A DNA stretch of 46,786 bases from the NCBI GenBank assembly GCA_020348445.1, contig CP070751.1, forward strand, positions 2,963,334-3,010,119, read 5' to 3'. This DNA comes from Thermoplasmata archaeon (GTDB taxonomy: Archaea; Thermoplasmatota; Thermoplasmata; GCA-020350865). Below are positions 7,257 to 35,111 of this stretch, in pieces. How positions within the stretch are numbered: the stretch's first letter is position 1; every line of letters begins with the position of its first letter. The position numbers were made by a program, and so were the translations under genes. The notes below the pieces were generated by a model. The model searched no databases. It saw only the letters and a program-made list of their open reading frames with translations, and was not told the DNA's origin.

Positions 7257-7820
7257 TCAGAGAGTTTTTTTCAGCATCCTTTCACATAATGTATCGAAGG
7301 TATGCTCAACATTATATCCCGTTTTTACGCTGGAGAGGTATCCAACAGCATCTTTGTAGCCCGATGCAAAATTTTCGATATCTTCTATATTCAATTGCTT
7401 TTGCCCCTCCAAATCGGACTTGTTACCTAGAATCACTATTGGTACATCTCCTGTTACAGTGATAGCCTGAGACAACCAGCCTGGAAGCTCATCTAGAGTT
7501 TTTTTCCTTGTGACATCGCATACGGCAATCAATCCTGCACATCCAAAGAAATAAGATTCTCTCAGCATATGTAAAAAGCACTGCTGGCCCATCAGGTCCC
7601 AGATCAAAAGATATACATCCAATTCGCTTTTATCTTCGGGATGTTTTATCTTTACTTCCTTCTTTGTTACATGGGTTCCTATGGTGTTGCTGTAGCTGTC
7701 GTCGAACATATCGTAAACAAATCTTTGAATAAGACTAGTTTTTCCCACTGCGCTTTCACCAATGAGACAGACCTTCCATTTATAGGGTTTTGAAACCTGC
7801 AATTTCAACCCCTCGTACAC
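7257..7820 (-). CDS. Rab/Ras-like small GTPase
   Basis: G1 GESAVGKT, G2 TIG, G3 WDLMGQ, G4 NKSD, G5 SSVK; 187 aa, standalone. Confidence 0.9.
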   Translation of the reverse strand: MYEGLKLQVSKPYKWKVCLIGESAVGKTSLIQRFVYDMFDDSYSNTIGTHVTKKEVKIKHPEDKSELDVYLLIWDLMGQQCFLHMLRESYFFGCAGLIAVCDVTRKKTLDELPGWLSQAITVTGDVPIVILGNKSDLEGQKQLNIEDIENFASGYKDAVGYLSSVKTGYNVEHTFDTLCERMLKKTL

Positions 7821-13847: not shown

Positions 13848-15086
13848 TTAGGTAAATATGACCTGGAGTATTTCATCAATATTCCTCAATTTTTGATATA
13901 TATGCTTGCAGTCGCCATCACCGAGTCCCCCCTCTAATTTGATGTTTAAATGGGAAGAAAGATTCTCAAATATGGAATCAAATGCTCCCTTGACATTCAA
14001 ATCATCGTTCATATGTTCTTCAAAGTCTTGGGTCAGTTGGGTAATTAAATCCTTCACCTCAGACCTCGATTTTCTGATTCCTTTAGGCTCAATAAGCTCC
14101 TTGATCATCTCTCTCAGGCTTTTCAATCTTTTAGCAGCTTCTTGAAATCTTTCATTTGTTAAATTCATCTTCTTTCTATAATGCCCATATATCAAATAGA
14201 AACGGATATGCTCTGAACTATAGCCTATGGTTAAAAAGTCCTCCATGTACACCACATTGCCCTTGCTCTTTGACATTTTCTTTCCGTTTAGAAGCAGATG
14301 CTCGCCGTGGAGCCAGTAATTGGCAAATGTCTCCCCAGAAACGCCCTCCACCACAGCCAGGTTGTAGTCGTGATGCCTATAAAGGTTGTCGATACCTCCG
14401 CAGTGAATGTCGATTTTGTATCCCAGGTATTTGGTAGCCATTGCAGGGTCCTGGACGTTCCAGGAGGGTCTTCCTCTTCCCAACTCCTCATCCCAGCATA
14501 CCTTTTCTCCTTCTTCGCATCCATGCCACAAGATGAAATCACCCAGGTTCCAGCGCATACCAGAATAGGTGTCCTTTTTAAAATGCCTCTTTTTAGTGGG
14601 CCAGAGGGACATGTCCAATCTGTATAATCTACCAAAACCCTTGAACTTGAGGGGATCGTAAAACACATCCCCCTCATGCCAATATGCAATTTCCTTTTTC
14701 AAGAGTGCTTTTATCAGGTAAACCGCTTGATCCACGGTTGTGGAGGATCTCGGATTGTAGGTAGGGGATTTTATGTGTAAAAGCTCTGTTTCTTTGTAGA
14801 ATGTATTCGCTATCTTCTCGGTTAGTTCCTTTACCTCAACACCCTCTTTTTCTGCCTCCTCTACAGCTTTATCCTCAATATCTGTGAAGTTCAAAACCCT
14901 CTGTACATCGTAGCCTAAATATTCAAGGTACCTTACTAAAATGTCTTCATATAGGAAGGTTCTCCAATTCCCCAAATGCGGTCTTTGATATATGGATGGA
15001 CCGCAGGTGAATATCTTGACCTCCTTCTTCTGTCTTGGTATGAAGGTTTTTTTATTTCTGGTCATGGTGTTGTAGAGTTTAAGCAT
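13848..15086 (-). CDS. Cysteinyl-tRNA synthetase-like paralog (altered Zn site, no anticodon-binding domain)
   Basis: CGPSIY, HLGN and KMSKS motifs present; WHIEC replaced by WNVQD and HHENE by HHDYN; protein ends after the DALR-like helices. Confidence 0.85.
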   Translation of the reverse strand: MLKLYNTMTRNKKTFIPRQKKEVKIFTCGPSIYQRPHLGNWRTFLYEDILVRYLEYLGYDVQRVLNFTDIEDKAVEEAEKEGVEVKELTEKIANTFYKETELLHIKSPTYNPRSSTTVDQAVYLIKALLKKEIAYWHEGDVFYDPLKFKGFGRLYRLDMSLWPTKKRHFKKDTYSGMRWNLGDFILWHGCEEGEKVCWDEELGRGRPSWNVQDPAMATKYLGYKIDIHCGGIDNLYRHHDYNLAVVEGVSGETFANYWLHGEHLLLNGKKMSKSKGNVVYMEDFLTIGYSSEHIRFYLIYGHYRKKMNLTNERFQEAAKRLKSLREMIKELIEPKGIRKSRSEVKDLITQLTQDFEEHMNDDLNVKGAFDSIFENLSSHLNIKLEGGLGDGDCKHIYQKLRNIDEILQVIFT

Positions 15087-15182
15087 AATACCCCATTTTT
15101 TTCCATTACACTATTGTTTCACTTTCCTAAATATCGTCCCACTGATTTTAAAGATTTTGTAGGAGAAAAGAAAAAAAGGAGA

Positions 15183-15749
15183 TTATTTGACTTTTACTGA
15201 GTGGGTTTTTTCCTTAGATATAGGCTTTTTCTTAGGTAATGTTATGTATAGGATTCCATCCTCCAATGTGGCATCTGCCATGTTGGGAATGACTTCGGTT
15301 GGTAAGGGCATATTTCTGTAACAGGTTGTGAATCTCCTTTCTTGATGAAAGTAACCCTCTTCTTCCTCCTCCACAGATTTCATTTCCCCACAGATCTCTA
15401 TGGAATTTTCTGTTAACTGGATATCGATATTCTCTTTGGGAATACCAGGCATTTCGGCCTCTATCACCAGTTCTTTTCCTGTATCCTTGATGTCTATTAA
15501 AGGTTGTCTTGTCTCGGCCCAGTCCAGCTTTGGCAAATAAAAATCAGGCCAATTTAGAAGTGTAGAGCCAATTCTTGTGCGAGGCCACCAAAGCGCTCGA
15601 TCGATATTTCGTCTGAACTCTTCTAATTCTTGGTCAAAACTTCGCAGTTTATCTGGTGAGTGTGATCTTGATGGTTCCCGAGGAATCAACTTTTTAGACT
15701 TCTCTTCTTTTTTGGAACCTTTACCTTTCTTTTCACTATTCTTTGCCAT
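15183..15749 (-). CDS. Small heat-shock protein (Hsp20/alpha-crystallin)
   Basis: PLIDIKDTGKELVIEAEMPGIPKENIDI...ATLEDGILYITLPKK. Confidence 0.93.
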   Translation of the reverse strand: MAKNSEKKGKGSKKEEKSKKLIPREPSRSHSPDKLRSFDQELEEFRRNIDRALWWPRTRIGSTLLNWPDFYLPKLDWAETRQPLIDIKDTGKELVIEAEMPGIPKENIDIQLTENSIEICGEMKSVEEEEEGYFHQERRFTTCYRNMPLPTEVIPNMADATLEDGILYITLPKKKPISKEKTHSVKVK

Positions 15750-15799: not shown

Positions 15800-15870
15800 T
15801 AGATATTTCAAAATCTGTTAAAGAATATACATATATGATTCATAATTTAGATGCAAATTATGTGCAAATT
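15800..15870 (-). promoter_or_regulatory. Hsp20 promoter carrying the shared AATTTGYAT repeat plus AGATTTTGAAA box
   Basis: Minus strand reads AATTTGCACAT AATTTGCATCT; the second repeat starts 43 nt before AGATTTTGAAA (15859 to 15816). Confidence 0.7.
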
Positions 15871-15903: not shown

Positions 15904-17835
15904 TTACTTGGTTTCTGGAATGATTCTCTGAGCCGAGATTGATGATACAACATTACCGTCATGATCATAGATTGTGTTAACGTTGAGCTCGATATCGATT
16001 TTCTGTCCCTCTTTTGTAATTATTTTAAGTTTTTTATTGCGTAATTTGCCTGTCTTTTGCCATTCCATAAAGAATTTTTTTGCATCTGTTTTGAATTCAT
16101 CTGCATATATATTGAAAAGGGGCATACCAATCAGCTCAGATTTTTTATAACCAAGGGTTTTTATTGCTGTGTCATTACAATCCAGAATTTCTCCCTGGGG
16201 GCTGATTCGATAGAAGAGATCAGGTGAGGTATTAAAGGCTACCCTGTATCTTTCTTCGCTCTCTTTCAATGCCTCCTCTGTTATTATTTTAGCTCTCGCA
16301 AATGATAGGTCAATTGCCAGCTCCTCAAGTATATTTATTTCTTCGGCATCAATTTCATGTTCCGCATCAGAGCAGACGATGGTTATGCCCACAACCTTAT
16401 CCTGATGCTTCATTGGAATCAAAATGGTCTGATGATCCTCTTCATGTTTGCAATATTTACAACTTGTGCAGTATCCTTCGTTTCTATCCAATATTTGATT
16501 CGATCCAGATTTTAAAACCGCCTTGATGCATTCAGGTGCAGTTCCCTCTCCATCTTGAGAGATTTCCCATGTATCCCTTTCATGCTTGCCTGAATGCCCT
16601 GTGGGAACGATCCTTCCCTTGGATTCATCGAGAACAACGATAGATATATCGAGATAATCCCTTGTTTCAACCAGCTTTTCACAGGACCCCTGCATAAGTC
16701 CCCTTAAATCGGATTCGTAACTTATTATCTGTCCAATATCCTTCATGGCCGTGAGCAAATCATTCAGATATCTTATTCTATCCTCTGCCACCTTGTTTAT
16801 TGTGATATCCTGAACAATACCGAGCATTCGAATTGGCTTCCCTTCTGCGTTTCTAATGACATCACCAGTTTCTGAAACCCATCTGACTGTTCCGTCAGGC
16901 CAGACAATGCGATGGTGGATTGAATATTCCTTGTCCTCTTCTACACTGAGGTTTACTGAATCCTTTACAAATTCTCTATCGTCGGGATGGACGCTTTCTA
17001 AGAAGTCTTCGTAGGTGGCACCGAATTCCCCCTTAGAGAAACCGAATAAAGGTTCGATGGTATCTGACCAGAATAAGTCACCTGTAATGATATTCCAATC
17101 CCAACTTCCGATATTGGCTGCTTTCTGAGCTAGTGCATATCTCTCCTCACTACGAATCAGGGCTTCCTCGGCTTGCTTACGTTTTGTGATGTTCCTTGAT
17201 AAAATCGAAAACCCAATAAGATTATCGTTTTCATCCTTTATGCCATCCATTGTAAGGGCAACTTCTATGGATTCTCCTGATTTGTGGTTAAGCTTGGTTT
17301 CATAATCCACAACAGATTCACCATTGGAGACCTTATTAATCAATTCGTCCAGAGTTTTGGAATCAGGAAATATTTGAAGAGAGTCACCCATGATCTCCTC
17401 TTCCTTATAGCCGGACAATTCCTCTGCACTCTGGTTTAAAAAAAACACCTGGCTTTCTTTGTTAATAATAATTACTGCATCATTGGTCTGTTCCATCACA
17501 TTCTGGAAGAATTTTGGTGAAGATGTAAAGTCTTTTAGCTTCTTGGATTTCTCGAATTTCTTAATGATATCCCTGAAGATCTCCATGTTTCCTTCCATAT
17601 CTGGGGTTAAGAAATATACCTCGCCGTATCCTCCAGTCTTGGATGTGCTTACCAGTTCATTTTTTAGAAGAACATCCACATGATGTTTTACTGTGCGATA
17701 ATTGAGATTTAAGATTTCGGCCAGTTGATTGAGATTATAAGGTCTTTCGTTGAGCAGCTCGAGAATTTGAATCCTGTTATGACCGCCTTTTTGACCTAGA
17801 ATCAGATATGAGAGTGTTTTCGTTAATTGTCTCAA
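15904..17835 (-). CDS. One-component regulator: winged-HTH, PAS, PAS, GAF, PAS
   Basis: N-terminal ArsR-like wHTH (NLNQLAEILNLNYRTVKHHVDVL), PAS/PAC motifs (VHPDDRE, WVSETG, GIVQDIT), GAF segment; no kinase domain; GGAGGAGG RBS. Confidence 0.9.
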   Translation of the reverse strand: MRQLTKTLSYLILGQKGGHNRIQILELLNERPYNLNQLAEILNLNYRTVKHHVDVLLKNELVSTSKTGGYGEVYFLTPDMEGNMEIFRDIIKKFEKSKKLKDFTSSPKFFQNVMEQTNDAVIIINKESQVFFLNQSAEELSGYKEEEIMGDSLQIFPDSKTLDELINKVSNGESVVDYETKLNHKSGESIEVALTMDGIKDENDNLIGFSILSRNITKRKQAEEALIRSEERYALAQKAANIGSWDWNIITGDLFWSDTIEPLFGFSKGEFGATYEDFLESVHPDDREFVKDSVNLSVEEDKEYSIHHRIVWPDGTVRWVSETGDVIRNAEGKPIRMLGIVQDITINKVAEDRIRYLNDLLTAMKDIGQIISYESDLRGLMQGSCEKLVETRDYLDISIVVLDESKGRIVPTGHSGKHERDTWEISQDGEGTAPECIKAVLKSGSNQILDRNEGYCTSCKYCKHEEDHQTILIPMKHQDKVVGITIVCSDAEHEIDAEEINILEELAIDLSFARAKIITEEALKESEERYRVAFNTSPDLFYRISPQGEILDCNDTAIKTLGYKKSELIGMPLFNIYADEFKTDAKKFFMEWQKTGKLRNKKLKIITKEGQKIDIELNVNTIYDHDGNVVSSISAQRIIPETK

Positions 17836-17942: not shown

Positions 17943-18026
17943 AATTGTAACTAATTTGTATCTAATCTATTAAAGAATTATAATTGTTTTTCACCAGATT
18001 TTGAAAATCTGATATATATAGATGAT
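17943..18026 (+). promoter_or_regulatory. DUF1059/cupin/DsrE promoter carrying the shared motif
   Basis: AATTGTAACT AATTTGTATCT; repeat at 17953, AGATTTTGAAA at 17996 (43 nt), then GATATATATAGATGAT. Confidence 0.75.
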
Positions 18027-21147: not shown

Positions 21148-21231
21148 AATTGTACCAAATTTGTATGCAACTTGTAAGAGAAATATAATTTTTTTATATG
21201 AGATTTTGAAATTTTGATATATATAGATGAT
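21148..21231 (+). promoter_or_regulatory. Second SnoaL gene promoter carrying the shared motif
   Basis: AATTGTACCA AATTTGTATGC AACTTGTA; repeat at 21158, AGATTTTGAAA at 21201 (43 nt), then GATATATATAGATGAT. Confidence 0.75.
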
Positions 21232-21821: not shown

Positions 21822-21910
21822 AATTGTATATAATTTGTATATGATTTGCATTTCAGATATATGTGTTTTGTAACAGATTTTGAAAATTCAATTAATATAA
21901 GCAATGATAT
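21822..21910 (+). promoter_or_regulatory. Superoxide reductase promoter carrying the shared motif
   Basis: AATTGTATAT AATTTGTATAT GATTTGCA; repeat at 21832, AGATTTTGAAA at 21875 (43 nt). Confidence 0.75.
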
Positions 21911-21926: not shown

Positions 21927-22337
21927 ATGGGTGAAAAAATGGGAGAAATAAAGGATCTATTTCAAACTGCGGATTGGAAAGTCGAAAAACATGTACCAGT
22001 GATATCACTCCCAGATAAAATAAAAAAAGACGAGCTGGTAAAAATAACCGTGAGCGTAGGAAAAGAGATACCCCATCCGAACACCACTGAACATCATATA
22101 GGGTGGATTGAGTTGTTCTTTTTACCTTCCCAAGGTAGGTTCCCTTACTCTATCGGAAGATTTGAATTCTCTGCCCACGGTGCTTCCTCCGAGGGCCCCA
22201 ATACCAGCTCGATTTATACCCAACCTGAGGTGGTCTGCACAATGAAATCTGGAATGACAGGAACCGTGCTGGCCACCTCTTTCTGCAATATTCACGGCCT
22301 ATGGACCAGTTCCGCAGAATTAAAAGTTGAGGATTAA
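21927..22337 (+). CDS. sor: Superoxide reductase (neelaredoxin type)
   Basis: EKHVP, HPNTTEHHIGWIEL and FCNIHGLW iron-site motifs. Confidence 0.93.
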   Translation: MGEKMGEIKDLFQTADWKVEKHVPVISLPDKIKKDELVKITVSVGKEIPHPNTTEHHIGWIELFFLPSQGRFPYSIGRFEFSAHGASSEGPNTSSIYTQPEVVCTMKSGMTGTVLATSFCNIHGLWTSSAELKVED

Positions 22338-22655: not shown

Positions 22656-23528
22656 ATGGGAAAAGGAGTAGCTGTAATCGGAGGTGGAATCGCAGGAGTC
22701 CAGGCGGCGCTGGATCTGGCAGAGCAGGGCATACACGTCTATATCATAGAGAAGTCACCAAGCCTCGGGGGAAGAATGGCACAGCTTGACAAGACGTTCC
22801 CAACCAATGACTGCTCAATGTGCATTCTATCCCCGAAACTTGTTGAGGCAGGACGTCATCCCAACATCGAATTATTGACTCTATCTGAAATCGAGGAACT
22901 CCAAGGAGAGGAGGGTGAATTCAAGGTCAAGGTGTTGAAGTCGGCCAGATATGTAGATGAGGAGAGCTGCACTGGATGTGGCATATGTGCGGCAACTTGT
23001 CCAGTTAAATACGAATACCAGATTCCAGAGAAAGAAAGTGTGCGCGAAAAGATTGAAGAAAATGAGCTTACTAAAATCGATACAATACTAAAAAAATATG
23101 AGGACGAGGTGGGCGTGCTTATCTCAATTCTCCAGGATATAAACGAGGAATTCAACTACTTACCTGAAAATGCCTTGAGGTACGTATCGGAAAAATTGGG
23201 CATTCCCCTAAGCCAGATATACCATGTTGCCACCTTTTACACAGCTTTTTCCTTAACGCCCAGGGGCGAGCATATAGTCAAGGTGTGCCAGGGTACGGCC
23301 TGTCATGTAAGGGGAACAAGGGCTGTTTTGGACGAGATCACGCGGATTCTTGATGTAAAGCCAGGAGAAACAACAGAAGATTTGCAATACACACTGGAGA
23401 CGGTGAACTGTCTTGGGGCCTGCGCCTTGGGCCCTGTTATGGTCTTGGACAAAGAATATCACGGGAATATGAGTCCAAGCAAGGTCAAGAAAATCCTCAA
23501 ATCAGAGCTGGAAGAAGGGGGGCTATGA
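22656..23528 (+). CDS. HdrA N-terminal fragment fused to NuoE/HydC-like 2Fe-2S domain
   Basis: VIGGGIAG...LDKTFPTNDCSMCILSPK...CTGCGICAATCP, then YHVATFYTAF...CQGTACHVRG...CLGACALGP. Confidence 0.9.
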   Translation: MGKGVAVIGGGIAGVQAALDLAEQGIHVYIIEKSPSLGGRMAQLDKTFPTNDCSMCILSPKLVEAGRHPNIELLTLSEIEELQGEEGEFKVKVLKSARYVDEESCTGCGICAATCPVKYEYQIPEKESVREKIEENELTKIDTILKKYEDEVGVLISILQDINEEFNYLPENALRYVSEKLGIPLSQIYHVATFYTAFSLTPRGEHIVKVCQGTACHVRGTRAVLDEITRILDVKPGETTEDLQYTLETVNCLGACALGPVMVLDKEYHGNMSPSKVKKILKSELEEGGL

Positions 23529-23531
23529 TCC

Positions 23532-25394
23532 ATGAAGAAAATAAGTAGCCTCGAGGAATTAGAAAAGTTGAGGGAGAGGATTTCGTCCTCAAAAGGCGGC
23601 AAGAAAACGAAGGTCTTGATTTCCACAAAGGCGACATGCTGTCAGCTTCAAAAAAGCGAGCAAGTTACATCTGCTTTGTTTGATGAGATTGAAAAAAATG
23701 GCCAAAAGGATAAAGTGGAAATCCTGACAACTGGATGTTTGGGCTTTTGTGAACTTGAGCCAATCATCGTGATCAAACCCAAGGGGATTCTATACAAAAA
23801 CATTAAAGTGGATGATGTTTCGGATATTGTAGCAAAGACAATTCTCAAGGGTGAAATAATTGAAAAACTGCTTTATGTAAATCCATTGGACGAGCAGAGA
23901 ATCGAACTTGAAGATGACATACCATTTTATTCAAAGCAAAACAGGATCCTTTTAGGCAACAATTCAAATATCGATCCTGACAAAATCGAGGATTATATAG
24001 CATCTGGAGGATATTCTGCACTTTCTAAGGTACTTTCGGGCATGAAACCTGATGAGATCATAGAAGAAATCAAAAAGTCCGGCCTTCGGGGTCGTGGAGG
24101 TGCTGGTTTTCCAACAGGTAGAAAATGGGAATCATGCAGAAATACCGAAGCAGAAGATGATATCAAATATGTTATCTGCAATGCAGACGAAGGTGACCCA
24201 GGAGCGTACATGGACAGGAACCTTTTAGAAAGCAACCCCCACAGCGTCTTGGAGGGTATGATAATCGGGGCATATTCCATAGGCTCCCACAATGGATATA
24301 TTTATGTCAGAAATGAGTACGAACTTGCTGTTTCCACCCTAAAAAATGCCATTAAACAGGCAAGGGAATATGGATTTTTGGGAAAGGATATTCTTGGCTC
24401 TGGATTTGACTTTACAATAAAATTGAGCCGCGGTGGTGGTGCATTTGTGTGCGGTGAATCCACGGCACTCATGGCTTCCATCGAAGGCAAACCAGGAGAG
24501 CCAAGGGCAAAACACATCCATACAACAACAAAGGGCCTCTGGGATCGACCCACCAACCTTAACAATGTGGAGACCTGGGCAAATGTTCCTCTTATCATCA
24601 ATTCTGGGGCAGATTGGTATTCAAAGATCGGAATGGACAAGAGCAAGGGCACGAAAATCTTCTCTTTGGTAGGAAAGATTCACAACACGGGCCTTGTCGA
24701 GGTCCCCATGGGAACGACATTGAGGGATATTATCTTCAAAATCGGTGGGGGTATTCCCGGGGAAAGGAAGTTCAAGGCCGTCCAGACCGGCGGTCCCTCG
24801 GGCGGTTGCATACCAGAACATCTGCTTGATCTCCCAGTGGATTATGAAAAGCTCACTGAAGCTGGGTCCATGATGGGCTCTGGCGGTATGATAGTGATGG
24901 ACGACCGAACGTGCATGGTGGATGTTGCAAGGTACTTCACGAACTTCCTCAAGGATGAATCCTGCGGAAAATGCGTGCCTTGTAGAAACGGCCTGATACA
25001 GCTTCATCATATGTTAACTGATATCTGCGAGGGAAGGGGAAGTGAAAAAGATCTAGATTTCTTTGAGGAGCTCGGTTTTTGGATAACAAATGGATCCTTA
25101 TGCCAACTTGGTACCACTGCGGTAAATCCGGTGCAAACAACGCTTCGATATTTCAAAGACGAGTATCTGACCCACATAGTGGATAAAAAATGCCCTGCCG
25201 GAGTATGCAAGGCTCTAATCACGTTCACAATCGATTCTGAAAAATGTACGGGCTGCGAGGTTTGTAAGAAGAACTGTCCCCAAGACGCTATTTCAGGTGA
25301 AAAGAAGGAAGTCCATGACATAGATCAGGATAAATGCATCAAGTGCGGCATTTGCGAGGATTCCTGCAAGTTCGATGCCGTGGAGGTGAACTGA
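23532..25394 (+). CDS. nuoF: NuoF/HydB-like NADH-binding flavoprotein
   Basis: SGLRGRGGAGFPTG, CNADEGDPGAYMDR, GGPSGG, ESCGKCVPCR, C-terminal 2x[4Fe-4S]. Confidence 0.93.
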   Translation: MKKISSLEELEKLRERISSSKGGKKTKVLISTKATCCQLQKSEQVTSALFDEIEKNGQKDKVEILTTGCLGFCELEPIIVIKPKGILYKNIKVDDVSDIVAKTILKGEIIEKLLYVNPLDEQRIELEDDIPFYSKQNRILLGNNSNIDPDKIEDYIASGGYSALSKVLSGMKPDEIIEEIKKSGLRGRGGAGFPTGRKWESCRNTEAEDDIKYVICNADEGDPGAYMDRNLLESNPHSVLEGMIIGAYSIGSHNGYIYVRNEYELAVSTLKNAIKQAREYGFLGKDILGSGFDFTIKLSRGGGAFVCGESTALMASIEGKPGEPRAKHIHTTTKGLWDRPTNLNNVETWANVPLIINSGADWYSKIGMDKSKGTKIFSLVGKIHNTGLVEVPMGTTLRDIIFKIGGGIPGERKFKAVQTGGPSGGCIPEHLLDLPVDYEKLTEAGSMMGSGGMIVMDDRTCMVDVARYFTNFLKDESCGKCVPCRNGLIQLHHMLTDICEGRGSEKDLDFFEELGFWITNGSLCQLGTTAVNPVQTTLRYFKDEYLTHIVDKKCPAGVCKALITFTIDSEKCTGCEVCKKNCPQDAISGEKKEVHDIDQDKCIKCGICEDSCKFDAVEVN

Positions 25395-28300
25395 TGACAG
25401 AAGAAGAATTCATCAAGTTCACCATAAACGGTGTGGAAGTTCAGGGAAAGCCAGGTGAAATGCTCATTGATGTTGCACAGAGAAACGGTTTTTATATTCC
25501 CAAACTGTGCAATCATGTGGCATTAAAACCCTACAGTGCATGTAGATTATGCATTGTGGAGATGGCAAAGGGTGGCCGCAGTAAATTCACAGCATCATGC
25601 AGCTTTCCAATATCTGAAGGAATTGAAGTAAATACAGAATCAGAGGGAGTTTTGAAACTTAGAAAAATGACACTTGAAGCCCTCATGGCCCAGGCACCTG
25701 ATTCAAAGGAAATCAGGGATATGGCCAAATATTACGGTATTACCGATACGAGATTCAAGGAAAACGAGGACAAAGAAAATAGATGCATTCTATGCGGGCT
25801 CTGCATCCGCGTATGCAATGAAAGAATGGGAGTTTATGCACTGGGATTTTCAGGTCGGGGTGCAAGCCGAAGACTGGATACACCCTTTGGTAGGCTCTCC
25901 GATGTTTGCATAACATGTGGAGCCTGTGAATCTGTTTGTCCCACTGACGCCATTAAGCTTGGCAAGATATCGAAGAATGAACCGAAACCCATTACCTCGG
26001 AGTTCGACTTGGGTCTAAAGGAAAGAAGCGTGATTTACACTCCATTTCCCCAGGCCATGCCTTTAATCTACCTTATTGACAAAGAGCGCTGCATCCATTT
26101 CGCCAAGGGAACATGCAAGATATGCCAGAAATCATGTGAGAAAGGTTCCATTGATTTTGAGCAAGAGGACAAAAAGCTGAAACTGGATGCAGGTGCCATC
26201 ATCGTGGCTCCGGGTTATGAATTTGTATCACCAGATACAAGGCCTGAACTTAGTTATGATAGGCTTTCGAATGTCATAACTGCAATGGAATTCGAAAGGA
26301 TACTGAATGCATCAGGACCTTTTGGCGGACATATAAAAAGGCTCTCTAATTTTAAGGAGCCAAAGAGCATGGCATTTATTCAATGCGTGGGCTCAAGGGA
26401 CAGAAACAAAGGTGTTAGGTACTGTTCTTCTGCATGCTGTATGTACTCAATAAAGGAGGCGATAATAGCAAAGGAGCATTCTCCTGATCTGAATATCAGC
26501 ATATTCCACATGGATATCCGCGCCTTTGGCAAGGAGTTCGACTCCTACTACAAGAGTGCCAAGGACATGGGCATTAAGTTCGTCAGATGCAGGGTGGCAG
26601 AGATACAAGGTGATGAATACCAAAATCCCATTGTTCATTTCACTGATGAAAATGACGAGCCAAAAAAAGAGGCCTTCGATATGGTTGTTCTGTCAAATGG
26701 TTTTGCCAGGCCCAAGGATGCCGATAAACTGGCTGGGGTTCTTGACATCAAGCTCAACAAGTACGGCTTCTGTGAGACATCGGCTTTCTCACCCCTTCAA
26801 AGCACAAGGCTAGGAATTTTCGCTGGGGGAGTTTTTACAGAGCCAAAGGACATACCAGATTCTGTTGCAGGGGCCTCGGGTGCTGCGGCAAAGGCCTCGG
26901 TTCTCATACCTCCCGATATGAGAATGATAGGTCGGGAAAAAGAGGAGATAATTGAAACGGACGTATCTGAAGAGGAACCTAGGATAGGTGTTTTCATTTG
27001 TCACTGTGGAATCAACATCGGGGCAACAGTCAATGTACCCAGCGTTGCGGAGTACGCAAGGACCCTGCCCAATGTCGTATATGCAGAGGACAACCTTTAC
27101 ACATGCTCCTATGACACTCAAAGAATAATTAAGGAGAAGATCAAGGAGCACGATCTAAACAGGGTGGTTGTTGCAGCCTGCTCTCCGAGAACACATGAGC
27201 CGCTTTTTCAGAGCACTATTTCCGAGGCTGCCTTGAATCCATATCTTTTTGAAATGGCCAATATCAGAGATCAATGCTCTTGGGTGCATCAGAGGGAGCC
27301 TGAGAGGGCAACAGAAAAGGCCAAGGACCTTGTGAGGATGATAGTTGCCAAATCCAATCTACTTACACCCCTTACAAGGGAAAGTCTAGCAGTAACTCCA
27401 ACATGCCTTGTAATTGGAGGGGGTATATCGGGTCTGACCGCTTCCAAGGATGTTGCAGACAGTGGCTTTAAGGTGTTTCTTGTTGAAAGGAAGAAGGAAC
27501 TCGGCGGGAATCTCAATTTAGTGAGTTGTCTTCTTGAAGGTGAGAATCCACAAAATTTTCTTAAAAGACTGGTAAAGGAAGTTAGAGAGCATGATAAAAT
27601 CGAGGTTTTAACAGAAGCCATTTTAGAAAATATACAAGGTTATGTTGGTAACTTCACCACAACTTTTACGCACGCGGGCGAATCCAAGAATTTGGAACAT
27701 GGTACAATAATAGTTGCCACGGGCTCAAATCCATACGATCCCTCTGAGTATCTTTATGGAAAACATAAGGGCGTAATTACCCAACTCGAATTGGAGAAAA
27801 TGCTTGAGAATAAAAAATTCAAAACAGATTCAGTTGTCATGATCCAATGCGTTGGCTCCAGGGATGAGAATCACGAGTACTGCAGTAGGATTTGCTGCAC
27901 CCAGGCAGTGAAAAATGCACTTAGGATAAAAGAAAAAAATCCAGATGCTGAAATTTATGTTCTCTTCAAAGATATGAGAACTTACGGATTCAGAGAAGAT
28001 TACTATGCAAAGGCATCTGATGAAGGAGTGAAGTTCATTTTGTACAATGATGAGCATAAACCCAAGGTAAAAGACGAGGAAGGTTTGGTGGTTGAGGTAG
28101 TTGATCCCATTCTCAAAAATATCTTGAAAATAAAACCCGATAAAGTTGTTCTTTCAATTGGAATGGAGCCAAGAAAAGAAAACACAGACCTCGCAAAGAT
28201 GTTGAAGGTACCAATAAGCAAGGACGGTTTCTTTTTAGAGGCTCATATGAAACTCAGACCACTGGACTTTGCCACAGATGGAATATTCCTTTGCGGTGCG

Positions 28301-28639
28301 GCTCATTCTCCAAAGTTCGTAAACGAGTGTATCTCGCAGGCAAGTGGTGCAGCAGCCAGGGCGTGCACCATACTTAGTAAAAGCGAAATATCGGCAGAGG
28401 GAATAGTGTCCCAAGTTGATGAGGAGTTGTGTTTCGGATGCGGAATTTGTGTTTTAAACTGTCCCTATAATGCAGTTGAGCTAGAGGAGGAAACCCAGAA
28501 GGCCAAGGTTGTCTCAGCACTCTGCAAAGGGTGTGGGGTTTGTGGTGCCACATGTCCAAAACATGCGATTGTAATGTGCCATTTCACTGACCAGCAAGTG
28601 AAGGCTCAGATCGATGCATTTGTTGAGGAGGTGCAATAG
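25394..28639 (+). CDS. hdrA: NuoG/HydA-N-like Fe-S domain fused to the remainder of a tandem HdrA
   Basis: ATG 25394 overlaps the nuoF stop after GGAGGTG. IPKLC...SACRLC 2Fe-2S domain, then EFDLGL...PFPQAMP, YCSSACCMY, RIGVFICHCG, second FAD module, AHMKLRP, ferredoxin. Confidence 0.9.
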   Translation: MTEEEFIKFTINGVEVQGKPGEMLIDVAQRNGFYIPKLCNHVALKPYSACRLCIVEMAKGGRSKFTASCSFPISEGIEVNTESEGVLKLRKMTLEALMAQAPDSKEIRDMAKYYGITDTRFKENEDKENRCILCGLCIRVCNERMGVYALGFSGRGASRRLDTPFGRLSDVCITCGACESVCPTDAIKLGKISKNEPKPITSEFDLGLKERSVIYTPFPQAMPLIYLIDKERCIHFAKGTCKICQKSCEKGSIDFEQEDKKLKLDAGAIIVAPGYEFVSPDTRPELSYDRLSNVITAMEFERILNASGPFGGHIKRLSNFKEPKSMAFIQCVGSRDRNKGVRYCSSACCMYSIKEAIIAKEHSPDLNISIFHMDIRAFGKEFDSYYKSAKDMGIKFVRCRVAEIQGDEYQNPIVHFTDENDEPKKEAFDMVVLSNGFARPKDADKLAGVLDIKLNKYGFCETSAFSPLQSTRLGIFAGGVFTEPKDIPDSVAGASGAAAKASVLIPPDMRMIGREKEEIIETDVSEEEPRIGVFICHCGINIGATVNVPSVAEYARTLPNVVYAEDNLYTCSYDTQRIIKEKIKEHDLNRVVVAACSPRTHEPLFQSTISEAALNPYLFEMANIRDQCSWVHQREPERATEKAKDLVRMIVAKSNLLTPLTRESLAVTPTCLVIGGGISGLTASKDVADSGFKVFLVERKKELGGNLNLVSCLLEGENPQNFLKRLVKEVREHDKIEVLTEAILENIQGYVGNFTTTFTHAGESKNLEHGTIIVATGSNPYDPSEYLYGKHKGVITQLELEKMLENKKFKTDSVVMIQCVGSRDENHEYCSRICCTQAVKNALRIKEKNPDAEIYVLFKDMRTYGFREDYYAKASDEGVKFILYNDEHKPKVKDEEGLVVEVVDPILKNILKIKPDKVVLSIGMEPRKENTDLAKMLKVPISKDGFFLEAHMKLRPLDFATDGIFLCGAAHSPKFVNECISQASGAAARACTILSKSEISAEGIVSQVDEELCFGCGICVLNCPYNAVELEEETQKAKVVSALCKGCGVCGATCPKHAIVMCHFTDQQVKAQIDAFVEEVQ

Positions 28640-29410
28640 GTGCCTGACTTCGAACCGAGGATACTTGCCTTTGCTTGTAATTGGTGCAGTTATGCAGGTG
28701 CTGATTTGGCCGGGATTTCCAGAATGCAGTATCCGCCGAACTTGAGAATCATCAGGGTCATGTGCTCTGGAAGAGTGGACCCAGTATTTATCTTGGATGC
28801 ATTATCAAAGGGCGTGGATGGTGTGCTGGTCCTTGGGTGTCATCCCGGGGATTGCCACTACATCTCAGGTAATCTCATGACCGAAAGAAAGATGAGATGG
28901 ACAAAGGAGCTGATTGAGAAGACTGGTGTGGATCCAAGAAGGCTTAGATTGGAATGGATCTCAGCCTCAGAAGGTGAAAGGTTTGCAAATACAGCCAAGG
29001 AATTCACGGACCTGATTAAAAAATTGGGGTCGATCCAAAAAGAAGAAAAAGAAAAAATATTTTCAGAATTAAAAGCAGCAGAAAAAGTTGCAGATGAATC
29101 CAGAGTAAGAATACTCATGGGCAAGGAAAGGGAGCTCGTGGAGGAGGGTAATGTCTACGGTGACAAGTCAACTCAGGAGGATTTTGACAGGCTCATGAAA
29201 GATATTCTTGATGACGAGCATGTTCGGGAGAAGATCCTGCAGATTGCAAAAGAAAAACCCTTGTCAGTCAAGGAGATTTCAAAAAGAATGAATATGCCGA
29301 GCCAGGAAATTGGAAAACATGTGATGTGGCTTCGACACAAAGGGAAAATCGCCTTGCACGGAATAAAGAAAAGATCGCCCTTGTACAAAACTGTGGAGGT
29401 GCCCTATTGA
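28640..29410 (+). CDS. mvhD: MvhD-like 2Fe-2S protein with C-terminal winged-HTH-like extension
   Basis: CNWCSYAGAD, RVMCSGRVDP, GCHPGDCHY, WISASEG; tail KPLSVKEISKRMNMPSQEIGKHVMWLRHKGKI. Confidence 0.88.
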   Translation: MPDFEPRILAFACNWCSYAGADLAGISRMQYPPNLRIIRVMCSGRVDPVFILDALSKGVDGVLVLGCHPGDCHYISGNLMTERKMRWTKELIEKTGVDPRRLRLEWISASEGERFANTAKEFTDLIKKLGSIQKEEKEKIFSELKAAEKVADESRVRILMGKERELVEEGNVYGDKSTQEDFDRLMKDILDDEHVREKILQIAKEKPLSVKEISKRMNMPSQEIGKHVMWLRHKGKIALHGIKKRSPLYKTVEVPY

Positions 29411-32400
29411 GCGAGGAGAAAAAGGTTGGAGCAGTGCTCGTCGTGGGGGGTGGGATAGCGGGTATGCAGTCCTCCCTTGATCTTGCGGAGTCAGGTTTCA
29501 AGGTTTATTTACTTGAACGGAGCCCCTGCATAGGAGGTGTCATGGCTCAGCTGGACAAGACATTTCCCACAAATGACTGTGCAATGTGCATCATGGCTCC
29601 CAAGCTCGTGGCAACAGGAAGACATCCAAATATCGAGCTTATCACGAACACGGAAATAGAAAATCTAGAAGGCGAGCCAGGCAACTTCAAAGTCACCTTG
29701 GCAAAGCATCCAAGAAGGGTATCTGCAGAAAAATGTACGGGGTGCGGTGTCTGTGCCCAGGAATGTCCCGTCGAGGCAGTAAACGAGTTCAATGAAGATC
29801 TTTTGCCCCGCTCTGCAGTTCATATAAATTATCCCCAGGCTGTCCCCCTCACATTTATCATAGACAAAACAGCGTGTATTGGCTGCGGAATCTGCGAGAA
29901 GATGTGCAAGGCAAATGCAATTGAATATGATCAAGCTGAAGAGGAGCAGGATATCTATGTAGGCTCAATTATTTTGGCCTTGGGCTTCGACGAATTCAAT
30001 CCCGAGATAAAGAAGGAATACGGTTACGGTATCTACCCAAATGTTGTTTCCAGCATAGAATTTGAGAGGCTGCTTTCTGCAACAGGCCCAACCGGTGGAA
30101 TGGTTCTCCGCCCATCTGATTATGACATTCCAAAAAAAGTAGCTTTCATCCAGTGTGTGGGCTCAAGGGACCAGCAGTGTGATAAGAGCTACTGCTCTGC
30201 AGTGTGCTGCATGTATTCGATTAAAGAGGCCATAATTGCAAAGGAGCATACAGAAGGTCTAGACTGTCACATCTTTTACATGGACATAAGAACGTATGGC
30301 AAGGAATTTGAAGATTATTATAACAGGGCACAGGATGAATACAAAATTGGATTCACAAGAAGCAGGCCAGCAAGTATAAGAGAGGATCCAAAGACAAGGA
30401 ATCTGATAATATCTTATATTGAAAACAGCGAGCCAAAAGAAGAAGAATTCGACATGGTGATCCTTTCAGTTGGAATAGACGCACCAAAGGACGCAGTTAG
30501 ATTGAGCGAGAAGCTGGGAATAGAATTGAATGAGCATAACTTCGCAGCCACAAAGAAGTTCTTTCCGCTCTCAACTTCAAAGGAAGGAATTTTCGTATGC
30601 GGTGCCTTCTCCTCTCCAAAGGATATTCCAGACACAGTGGCCCAGGCTTCTGCAGCAGCCTCAAAGGCCTCGGCTATGGTTTCCACAGAAAGAGGAACCA
30701 TGATCACCAAAAGAGAAATTATTCCTGAAAAGGATGTGAGACTTGAGGGGCCAAGAATCGGTGTTTTTATATGTCACTGCGGAATAAACATCGGTGGTGT
30801 TGTAAGGGTTCCAGAGGTTGTGGAATATGCAAGGACCTTGCCTAATGTTGCCTATGCAGAGCATAATCTATACACCTGTTCACAGGACACCCAGGAGAAG
30901 ATAAAGGAGAAGGTGAAGGAGCAAAATCTCAACAGGGTAATAGTTGCATCATGCACTCCAAGAACCCATGAGCCGCTTTTCCAGGCCACTGTTTCGGAGG
31001 CGGGATTGAATCCATATCTTTTCGAGATGGCGAATATAAGAGATCAGTGTTCCTGGGTGCACATGCACGAGCCCGATTCTGCAACAGAGAAAGCCAAAGA
31101 CCTTGTTCGAATGGCTGTTGCAAAGGCAAGGCTTCTTGAGCCCCTGAAAATGGCAACACTGGGTATCAACAGAAGCGCACTTGTAATAGGTGGTGGGATA
31201 TCTGGTATGACCGCTGCTTTAGGATTTGCAAAGCAGGGATACAAGGCGTATCTTGTGGAGAAAACTTTGGAACTTGGAGGTAATTTAAGACACCTGCGCT
31301 ATTCTGGGACTCAGGAGGATCCGCAAAAAGAGTTGGCAAGCTTAATCAAATTGGTGGAGGAAAATGAAAACATCGAGATCTTCAAAAGCGCAGAGATTCT
31401 TTCAATTGAGGGTTACGTGGGTAATTTCAAATCAAGGATTCTTTCTGAAAATATGGAGCATGAAATCGAACATGGAGTTGTTGTGGTGGCAACAGGTGCC
31501 CTGGAGTACGAGCCTACAGAGTACATGTACGGTAAAGACGGGAGGATAATAACCCAATTGGAGCTTGAGCAACTTCTTGCCGAGGATAAAATCAATCCAA
31601 AAAATGTTATCATGATACAGTGCGTGGGCTCAAGAGGAGAGAAGGTTCCGTACTGCTCCAGAATATGCTGTACAACAGCAATAAAAAATGCGCTTCAAAT
31701 TAAAGAACATGAGCCAGATGCAAAAGTATACGTTCTCTATAGGGATATTAGAACCTATGGTTTTAGGGAAGATTTCTACGACAAGGCCCTGGAAGAAGGT
31801 ATAACGTTTTTAAGATTTGATGTAGACTCAAAACCTAAAGTCGAGGTTGCATCGGGAAGACTGAAGGTCACAGTAAAGGAACCATTGATTGACGAAAATA
31901 TCGATTTCAATCCGGATTTTGTTGTATTGAGCGTTGCCCAGGTTCCTGATCCTAACAACGAGGACCTATCAAAATCCCTTAAGGTTCCCCTTTCCAAGGA
32001 CGGTTTCTTTTTGGAAGCCCACATGAAGCTGCGGCCAGTTGACTTTGCCACTGAAGGTGTCTTTCTTTGTGGCTCTGCCCACTCACCTAAGTTCATAGAC
32101 GAGAGCATATCGCAGGCCGAGGCCGTGGTCTCAAGGGCATGCACAATACTCTCTAAGGATTATTTAGAAGCTGAGGGTGTAATTTCCATCGTGAACTCAG
32201 ACATATGCAGTGGGTGTGAGACATGTATCCTTGTATGTCCTTTTGACGCCATTGACAAGGATGATAAGGGAAAGGCCAAGGTCAACGAGCTACTTTGTAA
32301 AGGCTGTGGAGCATGTGTTGCAGCATGCAGAGCAGGTGCAATTCAACAAAGATGCTTTACTGACGAGCAGATTTTATCTGTTATCAGGTCAGCATTTCAG

Positions 32401-32415
32401 GAGGTGAGCACCTGA
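29407..32415 (+). CDS. hdrA: Tandem (two-module) HdrA-like flavoprotein
   Basis: TTG 29407 overlaps the mvhD stop after GGAGGTG; two FAD modules, TNDCAMC, YCSAVCCMY, RIGVFICHCG, YCSRICC, C-terminal ferredoxin. Confidence 0.93.
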   Translation: MSEEKKVGAVLVVGGGIAGMQSSLDLAESGFKVYLLERSPCIGGVMAQLDKTFPTNDCAMCIMAPKLVATGRHPNIELITNTEIENLEGEPGNFKVTLAKHPRRVSAEKCTGCGVCAQECPVEAVNEFNEDLLPRSAVHINYPQAVPLTFIIDKTACIGCGICEKMCKANAIEYDQAEEEQDIYVGSIILALGFDEFNPEIKKEYGYGIYPNVVSSIEFERLLSATGPTGGMVLRPSDYDIPKKVAFIQCVGSRDQQCDKSYCSAVCCMYSIKEAIIAKEHTEGLDCHIFYMDIRTYGKEFEDYYNRAQDEYKIGFTRSRPASIREDPKTRNLIISYIENSEPKEEEFDMVILSVGIDAPKDAVRLSEKLGIELNEHNFAATKKFFPLSTSKEGIFVCGAFSSPKDIPDTVAQASAAASKASAMVSTERGTMITKREIIPEKDVRLEGPRIGVFICHCGINIGGVVRVPEVVEYARTLPNVAYAEHNLYTCSQDTQEKIKEKVKEQNLNRVIVASCTPRTHEPLFQATVSEAGLNPYLFEMANIRDQCSWVHMHEPDSATEKAKDLVRMAVAKARLLEPLKMATLGINRSALVIGGGISGMTAALGFAKQGYKAYLVEKTLELGGNLRHLRYSGTQEDPQKELASLIKLVEENENIEIFKSAEILSIEGYVGNFKSRILSENMEHEIEHGVVVVATGALEYEPTEYMYGKDGRIITQLELEQLLAEDKINPKNVIMIQCVGSRGEKVPYCSRICCTTAIKNALQIKEHEPDAKVYVLYRDIRTYGFREDFYDKALEEGITFLRFDVDSKPKVEVASGRLKVTVKEPLIDENIDFNPDFVVLSVAQVPDPNNEDLSKSLKVPLSKDGFFLEAHMKLRPVDFATEGVFLCGSAHSPKFIDESISQAEAVVSRACTILSKDYLEAEGVISIVNSDICSGCETCILVCPFDAIDKDDKGKAKVNELLCKGCGACVAACRAGAIQQRCFTDEQILSVIRSAFQEVST

Positions 32416-32422
32416 GTGAAAA

Positions 32423-32610
32423 GCCTGAATACGAGCCAAAGATACTTGCATTTCTCTGCAACCGTTTTTTTCTTTGGGCTTTTTTCTCCGCTGGCTGGCC
32501 CTTGCAAAGAAAAAAATGGGTCAAAAAGAAACTCGGGCCAACCTGCTCGAAAAAAGGAGGTGTAATTAGTGCCTGAATACGAGCCAAAGATACTTGCATT
32601 TCTATGCAAC
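32423..32610 (+). repeat. 40-bp direct repeat of the mvhD 5' end flanking a 108-nt hairpin insert
   Basis: 32423-32462 vs 32571-32610 match at 39/40; 14-bp stem 32463-32476 with 32505-32518. Confidence 0.85.
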
Positions 32611-32997
32611 TGGTGCTCATATGCAGGTGCAGACCTGGCCGGAGTGTCCAGATTCCAGTATCCTCCAAATGTTCGCATAGTCAGGGTCATGTGCTCGGGT
32701 AGAATCTCTCCAAGATTTGTTTTAAAAAGCTTCCAGGAAGGTGCTGACGGTGTTCTGATTGCAGGCTGTCATCCTGGTGACTGCCATTATTCAAAAGGCA
32801 ACTACTACACAAGGCGAAGATTGACTGTCCTTGGTAAATTACTGGAACATGTGGGTGTGGACCCAAGAAGATTCAAGGTGAAGTGGATTTCTGCCTCAGA
32901 GGGCGGCAAATTCGCGGATGTGATAAAAGAAATGACTGAGAACGTGAAGGGTCTGGGACCCCAGCGTTCTTTTAAAAGGGTAGATGATGATGAGTAA
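32569..32997 (+). CDS. mvhD: MvhD/FlxD-like 2Fe-2S protein
   Basis: CNWCSYAGAD, RVMCSGR, GCHPGDCHY; AGGAGGTG RBS. Confidence 0.93.
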   Translation: MPEYEPKILAFLCNWCSYAGADLAGVSRFQYPPNVRIVRVMCSGRISPRFVLKSFQEGADGVLIAGCHPGDCHYSKGNYYTRRRLTVLGKLLEHVGVDPRRFKVKWISASEGGKFADVIKEMTENVKGLGPQRSFKRVDDDE

Positions 32998-33994
32998 AAT
33001 CGAGGATGAAATAAGAGGAATTGCAAAAAAGCTACTTGAAGAAGGCAAGGTAAAGTACTTCACAGGTTATGCAAAGGGGCCGGATTCCTTTAGGGCAAGA
33101 CCCATTATCATTGATGATCCAAAAGATGTGGACAAGCTGATTTGGTCTCCTTGCTGTGTGAACAACCTGGGTGTGTACCTTGTTGACGAGATGAAGAAAA
33201 AGCCAAAAAGAGGGGAAGAGCCAGACACTCGGCCTGTTGGAATAGTTACCAAAGCATGCGACGCAAGGGGCATCACCGTACTTCACCAGGAGAACATATT
33301 ACCCAAAGAAAGGGTGTACGTCATTGGCATCCCCTGTAGGGGAATGGCAGATCCCGAGAAACTTGAAAAACATGCAAGAAAAAAGGGCCTTGGTCATGAT
33401 GCAATCTACAACATGGATATAAAAGAGGAGAAGATGATGTTTACAGGAGAGGCAGAAGGGGTAAAGGTGGCCTTCCCAAGAGAGGAGGTACTACTTGACA
33501 AATGCAAGGAATGTGTTCATCACAATCCAAGGGAGTACGATATCGTAATTGGAAAGAGAATTGAAAATCCCCATGTGGATAAGTACGCCACAATCAGAGA
33601 ACTGGAAGACATGTCCCTTGAAGAAAGAGAAAAATTCTGGGAGATGATATTTGAAAGATGTATCAGATGCAATGCATGCAAAGAGGTCTGTCCCATGTGT
33701 TATTGCGAGGAATGTACAGTTGAGAAGGCAAAACCAATGAGGTGGTGCTCCAAGTCAGCTGACAAATCAAATAATGAGTTCTTTCATCTTATTCGCGCAA
33801 TGCATCTTGTGGGAAGATGCATCGATTGCGGTGAATGTGAGAGGGTGTGTCCCATGGCAATACCCCTTCGAAAGCTGTATAGGAAAATGGCCAAAGAAGC
33901 AGAGAAGCTTTACAGCTACGAGGCCGGTTTGAATCCCGAAGAGGATCCTGTCTTTGCCACATTCAGAGTTGACGATGATGATGAATTTGAGTAG
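32984..33994 (+). CDS. FlxC/FdhB-like 4Fe-4S protein
   Basis: CVNNLGVYL, KACDARG, CIRCNACKEVCPMCYC, RCIDCGECERVCP. Confidence 0.8.
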   Translation: MMMSKIEDEIRGIAKKLLEEGKVKYFTGYAKGPDSFRARPIIIDDPKDVDKLIWSPCCVNNLGVYLVDEMKKKPKRGEEPDTRPVGIVTKACDARGITVLHQENILPKERVYVIGIPCRGMADPEKLEKHARKKGLGHDAIYNMDIKEEKMMFTGEAEGVKVAFPREEVLLDKCKECVHHNPREYDIVIGKRIENPHVDKYATIRELEDMSLEEREKFWEMIFERCIRCNACKEVCPMCYCEECTVEKAKPMRWCSKSADKSNNEFFHLIRAMHLVGRCIDCGECERVCPMAIPLRKLYRKMAKEAEKLYSYEAGLNPEEDPVFATFRVDDDDEFE

Positions 33995-34009
33995 TAAAGA
34001 GATGAGATA

Positions 34010-35041: not shown

Positions 35042-35111
35042 GCAATGATAATGCCCTTCATCTGCACCAAAATATGATGATCAGATTAAAAGGAGTCACG
35101 GAGGTGAAGGG

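Follow-up and report, generated by a model that had tools for sequence, protein, structure and literature searches.

The gene at positions 13848 to 15086 of a 46,786-nucleotide stretch of DNA from a Thermoplasmata archaeon (GenBank contig CP070751.1, positions 2,963,334 to 3,010,119; the whole stretch is called the window here) encodes a 412-residue paralogue of cysteinyl-tRNA synthetase (CysRS) that lacks the anticodon domain. Judged by its sequences, it belongs to a large, conserved family without an assigned function that is descended from CysRS, called here the WNxQD family after its altered active-site motif; the literature searched held no characterising paper for it. The protein appears to be catalytically active, a class I ligase of the adenylate-forming kind whose anticodon-less clade derives from HIGN-type CysRS. 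The explanation tentatively favoured for its function, with somewhat less than even confidence, is a tRNA-independent ligase resembling MshC, the cysteine:glucosaminyl-inositol (GlcN-Ins) ligase of mycothiol synthesis. Such an enzyme would have a Cys/Asp/His metal site, would join cysteine or a close analogue to a non-tRNA acceptor held on a new connective peptide 1 (CP1), and would serve in defence against oxidative stress. Synthetase paralogues without a tRNA-reading domain have repeatedly proved to be makers of non-translational products, as with mycothiol (MshC), glutamyl-queuosine (GluQRS) and recoded cysteine (CysRS*).

The gene and its motifs, each of the latter confirmed by direct translation, are as follows.

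13848..15086, minus strand: CysRS paralogue of the WNxQD family without anticodon domain, 412 residues (intact open reading frame, profile matches, alignment with 1LI5, AlphaFold2 model)

15003..15005, minus strand: Cys28, first zinc ligand in CysRS, within TCGPS, invariant across paralogues and canonical CysRS

14967..14978, minus strand: HLGN, a HIGH motif ending in Asn instead of His (translation)

14523..14618, minus strand: rebuilt CP1 block LDMSLWPTKKRHFKKDTYSGMRWNLGDFILWH, basic and aromatic, a family signature (family-invariant residues)

14448..14474, minus strand: GRPSWNVQD, with Trp209 kept and His206 replaced by Asn, Glu208 by Gln and Cys209 by Asp (alignment and translation)

14361..14378, minus strand: RHHDYN, with His238 kept and Pro replaced by Arg, Glu236 by Asp and Asn237 by Tyr (alignment and translation)

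14265..14279, minus strand: KMSKS loop, intact (translation)

The paralogue matches the Pfam family tRNA-synt_1e at 265 bits. Its score with the cysS profile TIGR00435 is 335.6 bits over model positions 1-401 of 466, below the curated cut-off of 340 bits, and its score with the MshC profile TIGR03447 is only 190.8 bits, under the cut-off of 485 bits; it is neither CysRS proper nor MshC, as a preliminary description made from the letters alone had held. The chain ends in ...IDEILQVIFT, where full-length CysRS runs on in the alignment into the linker and anticodon-binding domain, and the anticodon-domain family PF23493, which is listed for canonical relatives, occurs in none of 120 family members. 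HMMER alignment to E. coli CysRS (1LI5) pairs Trp209 and Asp213 of the paralogue with W205 and C209, and His238 and Asn242 with H234 and E238. The zinc ligands of the E. coli enzyme are C28, C209, H234 and E238; at these positions the paralogue has C28, D213 and H238, and Asn242 at the place of E238. The same description had read all of these features correctly: HLGN, KMSKS and Cys28 in CGPS are intact, GRPSWNVQD replaces GRPGWHIEC and RHHDYN replaces PHHENE in the alignments with 1LI5 and 8QHP, the second zinc cysteine is Asp and the glutamate Asn, and the anticodon domain is gone. The AlphaFold2 model (predicted local distance difference test 87, predicted template modelling score 0.90) has the Rossmann, CP1, stem-contact and helical-bundle fold of canonical CysRS (1LI5/1U0B and 8QHP), with template modelling (TM) scores of 0.84-0.89. 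The best superposition is on CysRS 8QHP (0.89), followed by 1LI5/1U0B and then by MshC (0.82).

A decaying copy, or a non-catalytic regulatory one, would account for the missing domain and for the score just under the TIGR00435 cut-off, but this is very improbable. The frame is intact, the fold is predicted confidently, and hundreds of sequences from many phyla, 55-79% identical, show no change in the catalytic motifs.

The genome has a separate full-length canonical cysS (G000:C1:5002966-5004360; 520.7 bits, TIGR00435 positions 1-465), and neither SepRS nor SepCysS rises above noise in its single 5.16-Mb contig (55 and 25 bits). A canonical cysS accompanies the paralogue in all five genomes checked, the window genome and four others. 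The paralogue is a second gene and not the source of Cys-tRNA(Cys), which the canonical cysS supplies; the thought that it might be the only route to Cys-tRNA can be dropped. The genome's own canonical CysRS (G000:C1:5002963-5004369) reads GRPGWHIED...PHHEAE, with Asp at the Cys209 position, and of the 120 canonical sequences closest to it 103 likewise have WHIED. Since the genome has no SepRS route, this WHIED enzyme must activate cysteine. WHIED relatives come from Thermoplasmata, DPANN, Nitrososphaerales and Altiarchaeota, and across a large clade of archaeal CysRS a Cys/Asp/His/Glu zinc site seems, from these sequences, to be usual. By its canonical CysRS the organism looks akin to Thermoplasmata/Methanomassiliicoccales.

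When 161 paralogues are set against 137 canonical CysRS sequences, the active-site changes that are truly specific to the family separate from those that are common. Both groups conserve C28, G29, T68, D69, W209, H238, H239 and KMSKS, and the first-shell cysteine contacts of CysRS (C28, G29, T68, W205 and H234) are invariant in both; the paralogue keeps all five of these together with KMSKS and the HxGN of the HIGN-type lineage. In contrast, His206, Glu208, Pro233 and the Lys of LWK, each present in 100% of the canonical sequences, give way to N, Q, R and H in 96% or more of the paralogues. Further family-specific replacements are E236D and N237Y, and the position of Glu238 varies among N, T, S and I. 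Relative to canonical CysRS, then, the paralogue has lost the anticodon domain, WHIEC has become WNxQD, PHHENE has become RHHDYx, LWK has become LWH, and CP1 has been rebuilt. The family consensus signature is WN[IV]QD, RHHDY and a CP1 block DMxxWP...DTYxGxRWN in a protein of about 400-430 residues, and the paralogue fits it throughout. As far as alignment can tell, the cysteine first shell is largely intact, and the novelty lies in the second shell and on the acceptor side.

Two of the changes that had seemed distinctive are not. HIGN is found in full-length CysRS with WHIEC/PHHENE in Bathyarchaeia, Aminicenantes, Acidobacteriota and Ignavibacteriota, so HLGN does not mark the family, and Asp at the 209 position is by itself compatible with membership in canonical CysRS. 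The argument of the preliminary description from Cys209-to-Asp to a different substrate therefore fails as it was stated. Annotators should note that neither Asp at 'Cys209' nor HxGN signals lost function, since both are usual in genuine CysRS lineages.

MshC (TIGR03447; 3C8Z, 8HFM) is the enzyme on which the favoured explanation is modelled. Like the paralogue it has about 410 residues, derives from CysRS and has no anticodon domain. It has also lost Glu238 and carries Tyr at 237 (HHEYS in M. smegmatis MshC, HHDYN in the paralogue, HHDY[NTS] in the family), so the loss of this glutamate does not set the paralogue apart from a cysteine-activating enzyme, as had been supposed. The two differ in other respects. 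MshC does keep the second zinc cysteine, as the earlier reading had it, since 8HFM has WHVEC where the paralogue has WNVQD; it also retains PHH and features of the HxGH type, and has an unrelated CP1. MshC hosts are Actinobacteria, whereas those of the WNxQD family are anaerobic archaea and bacteria, and no specific MshA-, MshB- or MshD-like partners were found for the paralogue.

In the proposed reaction, ATP would be bound via HLGN and KMSKS, and an alpha-amino acid, most probably cysteine or a close analogue, via Gly29 and Thr68. The amino acid would be held under Trp209 at a putative metal site with three ligands, Cys28, Asp213 and His238, on the pattern of MshC. Use of cysteine is plausible because each lost zinc ligand has a precedent in a cysteine-activating enzyme, Asp209 in CysRS and the absence of Glu238 in MshC. 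The aminoacyl-AMP thus formed would pass its aminoacyl group to a non-tRNA nucleophile on the basic and aromatic CP1 block. CP1 of class I synthetases faces the acceptor end, and we infer from its conservation in the family alignment that the rebuilt block is the acceptor site. The product could be, for example, a cysteine-bearing small molecule or conjugate, and may be exported.

More than 6000 database proteins match the paralogue at E <= 1e-20. The best 120 of these share 55-79% identity with it, are about 400-430 residues long and come from anaerobic archaea and bacteria; NCBI labels family members 'class I tRNA ligase family protein'. Among the best 80 loci, drawn from one-genome-per-species contigs, 58 bear the family signature; about 22 are canonical HIGN-type CysRS that fit a second search pattern and are excluded from paralogue counts. 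Hosts of the signature loci are Desulfobacterota, Nitrospirota, Spirochaetota, Acidobacteriota, Bathyarchaeia, Methanomicrobiales, Methanocella and Methanomethylovorans. Within a set of 41 relatives only the window genome has the gene, and four genomes of the same genus lack it; in an even sample of the phylum it occurs in 9 of 301 genomes, seven of them in one family. Archaeal and bacterial members are intermixed in the family tree. This patchy spread looks, from the sequences, like horizontal transfer of an accessory function. The window genome, at 5.16 Mb in one contig, is larger than the four same-genus genomes (2.3-3.7 Mb), and its extra DNA includes the paralogue.

A search of 1.8 billion representatives with a family profile returns HIGN-type canonical CysRS as the best non-family matches, together with proteins of about 405-413 residues that lack the anticodon domain and have WHIEC/HHENE. 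The motif DIxCGGxDN is common to the family and to HIGN-type CysRS of Bathyarchaeia, Aminicenantes and Acidobacteriota; the full-length HIGN-type lineage (L064-L085; P0305-P0363), which bears it, is the nearest canonical group. In a careful tree (IQ-TREE, LG+C20+F+G4 by posterior mean site frequency, unrooted, with support as ultrafast bootstrap/Shimodaira-Hasegawa-like approximate likelihood ratio test), a branch of length 0.83 leads to the WNxQD family, which forms a clade with 100/100 support. Its sister (98/91) is P0315, which reads WHIEC and PHHDNE. Twenty-two anticodon-less rows split from the other 30 rows at 100/99, and when the tree is drawn from its midpoint these 22 fall among HIGN-type CysRS. 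P0353, with WNVQC and HHENT, looks like an intermediate form. Since the other branches of the anticodon-less clade mostly keep WHIEC/HHENE, loss of the domain came first and remodelling of the pocket second, and this order is the strongest point for a real functional shift. A first tree rooted on MetRS had a branch length of 7.8 and was set aside as unreliable.

Loss of the anticodon domain also arose independently elsewhere (P0427, P0343/P0384, L107-L109). The proteins at L107-L110 (G010, G044, G023, G028) and P0343, P0384 and P0427 are CysRS-like, anticodon-less and 405-442 residues long, with an intact HIGH motif and partly altered pockets (W[HN][LI][QE]C; HHES[ND]); several are from same-class relatives of the window genome. 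No fusions of the WNxQD family to other domains were found, and a search for longer forms gave only full-length CysRS-PALP. These fusions (P0241-P0293) are about 775 residues long and join CysRS, anticodon domain included, to a pyridoxal phosphate-dependent PALP domain (cysteine-synthase-like, PF00291). Their hosts are Desulfobulbaceae, Desulfotalea and Desulforhopalus, where they are a third cysS-like gene in some genomes; L099 (G003) and L104 (G001) probably encode such fusions too.

The zinc-sparing CysRS paralogues of gamma- and beta-proteobacteria are also second copies, but they are Zur-regulated, are reported to keep all zinc ligands, and lie in Zur/znu clusters (Haas et al. 2009, PMC2770081). 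The window protein is truncated and shows no Zur/znu context, and a paralogue of this type was ruled out.

The genes adjoining the paralogue in the window are the following.

15904..17835, minus strand: regulator with HTH_5, PAS, GAF and PAS domains, upstream of the Hsp20 gene, position kept in relatives

15183..15749, minus strand: Hsp20 gene, directly upstream of the paralogue, same order in L086-L088

12186..13793, minus strand: exported membrane protein with DOMON and cytochrome b561 domains, downstream of the paralogue after a 54-bp gap; same order in L086, L087 and L088, and nearby in L089

11703..12164, minus strand: AhpE-type 1-Cys peroxiredoxin, closest among solved sequences to M. 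tuberculosis AhpE Rv2238c (E = 2e-27)

The redox setting that was first noticed is real, and stress genes belong to it as well. The Bcp and Tpx types match the window peroxiredoxin at 1e-18 or worse, against 2e-27 for AhpE. The DOMON-b561 protein has 535 residues, with about 240 N-terminal residues without a family match, then DOMON, then a b561 domain of eukaryotic type, and is unusual for an archaeon. The window genome shares with its closest metagenomic relatives a run of genes that goes from the HTH-PAS-GAF regulator through Hsp20 and the paralogue to DOMON-b561, in some cases DJ-1, and finally an AhpC/TSA gene, which is that of the AhpE-type peroxiredoxin. An oligo-T tract follows the Hsp20 stop codon and none lies between the paralogue and the DOMON-b561 gene, so the likely transcription unit is paralogue, DOMON-b561 and AhpE, and these three are probably co-transcribed. 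A role in thiol chemistry or oxidative stress is suggested by this arrangement, because the paralogue stands in line with a DOMON-b561 and an AhpE-type peroxiredoxin gene.

AhpE-family peroxiredoxin genes also lie 0-24 bp upstream of the paralogue in nine Bathyarchaeia/Methanocella loci, seven of which have in addition a convergent cytochrome b5-like gene. In mycobacteria AhpE is reduced via mycothiol and mycoredoxin, and mycothiol synthesis is completed by MshC and the GNAT protein MshD, with thiol conjugates exported (PMC4360819). The place of the paralogue beside an AhpE-type peroxiredoxin gene is a further parallel to MshC, as the mycobacterial AhpE is dependent on mycothiol.

Exporters are a second recurrent context. 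In the Thermoplasmatota family f37 the order is paralogue, DUF502 and GNAT, with an overlapping MatE gene; MatE is directly upstream of the paralogue in one Nitrospirota/Syntrophales clade, and LysE or TauE exporters are near some loci. ABC-2 exporter pairs adjoin the paralogue in L028, L050 and L061 and are homologous to pairs at L120 and L121. At the latter two loci (L120:3281-6242 and L121:3252-6227) the sister anticodon-less proteins P0304 and P0319 are encoded by the third gene of an ABC-2 operon (DrrA-like ATPase, permease, ligase). Their pocket is unaltered (WHIEC/AHHENE), and sister proteins of this kind are possible biochemical controls for the family. GNAT and thioredoxin genes follow in L120, and a thioredoxin gene is present in L119; at some loci GNAT is adjacent or two genes away with a thioredoxin gene nearby. 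Exporters and thiol peroxidases are the contexts to which the family's function points.

Several observations weigh against the MshC-like explanation, and the first concerns the pocket. Every canonical CysRS sampled retains His206 and Glu208; so do MshC and three of the four anticodon-less sister proteins, all but P0353. The pocket is unlike that of every known cysteine-activating enzyme and, as read from the alignments, may belong to an enzyme with another substrate or with no zinc. It is possible, if doubtful, that the paralogue is a tRNA-independent ligase retuned for a substrate other than cysteine, such as Ser, 2,3-diaminopropionate, homocysteine, selenocysteine or a non-amino-acid carboxylate, with zinc lost or the metal changed. 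Replacement of both residues in the family, the change of six pocket and second-shell positions together on the one branch of length 0.83 after which they were frozen, the free variation at the Glu238 position and the seemingly intermediate P0353 all argue for this. On the other side, all five cysteine contacts of CysRS are invariant in the family, Asp209 and loss of Glu238 are each seen in cysteine-activating enzymes, and no gene context indicates another amino acid. The altered pocket posited in the preliminary description is thus upheld by the replacement of His206 and Glu208 and by the fixing of the changes on one long branch, and its altered substrate is weakened by the invariant first shell; the shift in the pocket is real, and a change of amino acid is possible.

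The second observation concerns CP1, which is the most remodelled region of the protein and yet is strongly conserved inside the family. Its consensus, WPKKKRRFKKDTYPGRRWN, is strongly basic, and a block rich in Lys and Arg would equally suit an RNA acceptor stem; the CP1 fragment alone has no significant match among solved sequences. The paralogue might accordingly charge a tRNA or tRNA-like acceptor by touching only the acceptor stem, which has been suggested for CysRS*, or aminoacylate a modified tRNA nucleoside, although such an RNA-directed activity is on balance unlikely. It would fit the invariant basic CP1, the retention of the stem-contact fold and of a CysRS-type helical bundle with MNDDL, and the very high archaeal-bacterial identity of 55-60%, which a conserved macromolecular partner would lead one to expect. 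The gene also mostly stands alone, as do many tRNA enzymes.

There are precedents for both forms of RNA-directed activity. CysRS* of Desulfobacterales is anticodon-less, is encoded downstream of selC*/selB* and has a PTVS motif in CP1 (Mukai et al. 2017, PMC5389517), and the truncated GluRS paralogue GluQRS/YadB glutamylates queuosine in tRNA-Asp (PMC9437257). Like CysRS*, the paralogue is a second cysS-like gene without an anticodon domain and with an altered CP1, found in Desulfobacterota among others. The published description of CysRS* sets the family apart, as PTVS is present in none of 120 members; with no selB or selC* nearby either, identity with CysRS* was ruled out. GluQRS is likewise a class I core reused without its anticodon domain, but its parent synthetase is a different one, and no evidence of an RNA substrate was found for the paralogue.

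Further points count against an RNA acceptor. Neither the window nor any of the 60 scanned loci (L006-L065) yielded a tRNA gene, and no paralogue locus has a gene for a selB/EF-Tu-type GTPase nearby. ARAGORN finds one ordinary tRNA-Cys(GCA) in the genome and no obvious orphan tRNA except one unassigned call, in a list that is incomplete since introns were not modelled. The C-terminal helical domain is poorly conserved across the family, and a patchy, transfer-prone distribution ill suits core translation. The unassigned tRNA-like gene (G000:C1:154342-154437) has a four-base anticodon call (ctcg) and may be an intron-containing tRNA.

The third set of observations that tell against the MshC-like explanation comes from the gene context. 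Clustering of 1378 open reading frames from 80 loci, with a Pfam tally of first and second neighbours, gave no universal neighbour, and at most loci synteny is lineage-specific only. AhpE recurs in two lineages, which is no more than suggestive once the many families compared are allowed for, and the links to exporters and thiol-redox genes, seen in few lineages, do not make a compelling statistical case. The neighbourhood analysis proposed at the outset thus yields redox, stress and exporter genes in several lineages, but none common to all. In the window itself, the oligo-T tract after Hsp20 (15166-15177) parts the paralogue from Hsp20 and from the Hsp20 promoter. Pairs of GT4 and PIG-L genes, which follow MshA/MshB logic, are present in the genome, but PIG-L also occurs in all four same-genus genomes without the paralogue, and the signal for MshA/MshB-like partners was discarded as uninformative for this reason.

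The heat-shock and oxidative-stress neighbours bear on another possibility, that of a stress nucleotide. The heat-inducible LysU of E. coli makes dinucleotides of the ApnA type, and by analogy the aminoacyl-adenylate of the paralogue could be attacked by ATP or ADP held on CP1, giving Ap4A or Ap3A. Hsp20 in the window, DnaK and DnaJ at one further locus (L025, where they and a HAD gene precede the paralogue), AhpE and DJ-1 would suit such a product. It would require only universal substrates, which would explain why the gene has no dedicated partners and is easily transferred, and an aromatic and basic CP1 could perhaps stack a base and bind phosphates. This is quite improbable, since the proposal draws on the LysU analogy alone, nothing in the sequence is specific to it, and it leaves the exporter links unexplained.

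The MshC-like explanation can be carried further. BshC, GshA and GCS2 are absent from all five paralogue-bearing genomes checked, and the family appears to have spread by gene transfer among oxygen-sensitive microbes without the ligases for glutathione, bacillithiol and mycothiol. It could be the committed ligase for an undescribed cysteine-derived low-molecular-weight thiol or aminoacylated glycoconjugate, that is, a third system of the MshC/BshC type. Exported by ABC-2 or MATE transporters, the product would act during exposure to oxygen in support of AhpE-type peroxiredoxins and of extracytoplasmic DOMON/cytochrome b redox proteins, in hosts that are strict anaerobes (Thermoplasmatota, Bathyarchaeia, methanogens, Desulfobacterota, Nitrospirota and Spirochaetota). 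This extended proposal is bold and unlikely.

An exact 11-mer, AGATTTTGAAA, occurs four times in the window, at 15806-15816 (minus strand), 17996-18006, 21201-21211 and 21875-21885 (all plus strand). The copies precede Hsp20, cupin-DsrE genes, a SnoaL-like gene and a desulfoferrodoxin-type superoxide reductase gene (21927-22337, PF01880), and no copy lies directly before the paralogue. Their positions fit a shared regulon, as a candidate from sequence.

Two other features of the window lie apart from the paralogue. The gene at 7257-7820 (minus strand) encodes a small GTPase of the Ras/Roc family, in an archaeal genome, with 187 residues and a Pfam Ras match of 114 bits. A long operon at 22656-36044 (plus strand) encodes HdrA-like flavoproteins, NuoE/NuoF-like and FrhB-like proteins and Fe-S subunits, and is probably that of an electron-bifurcating complex.

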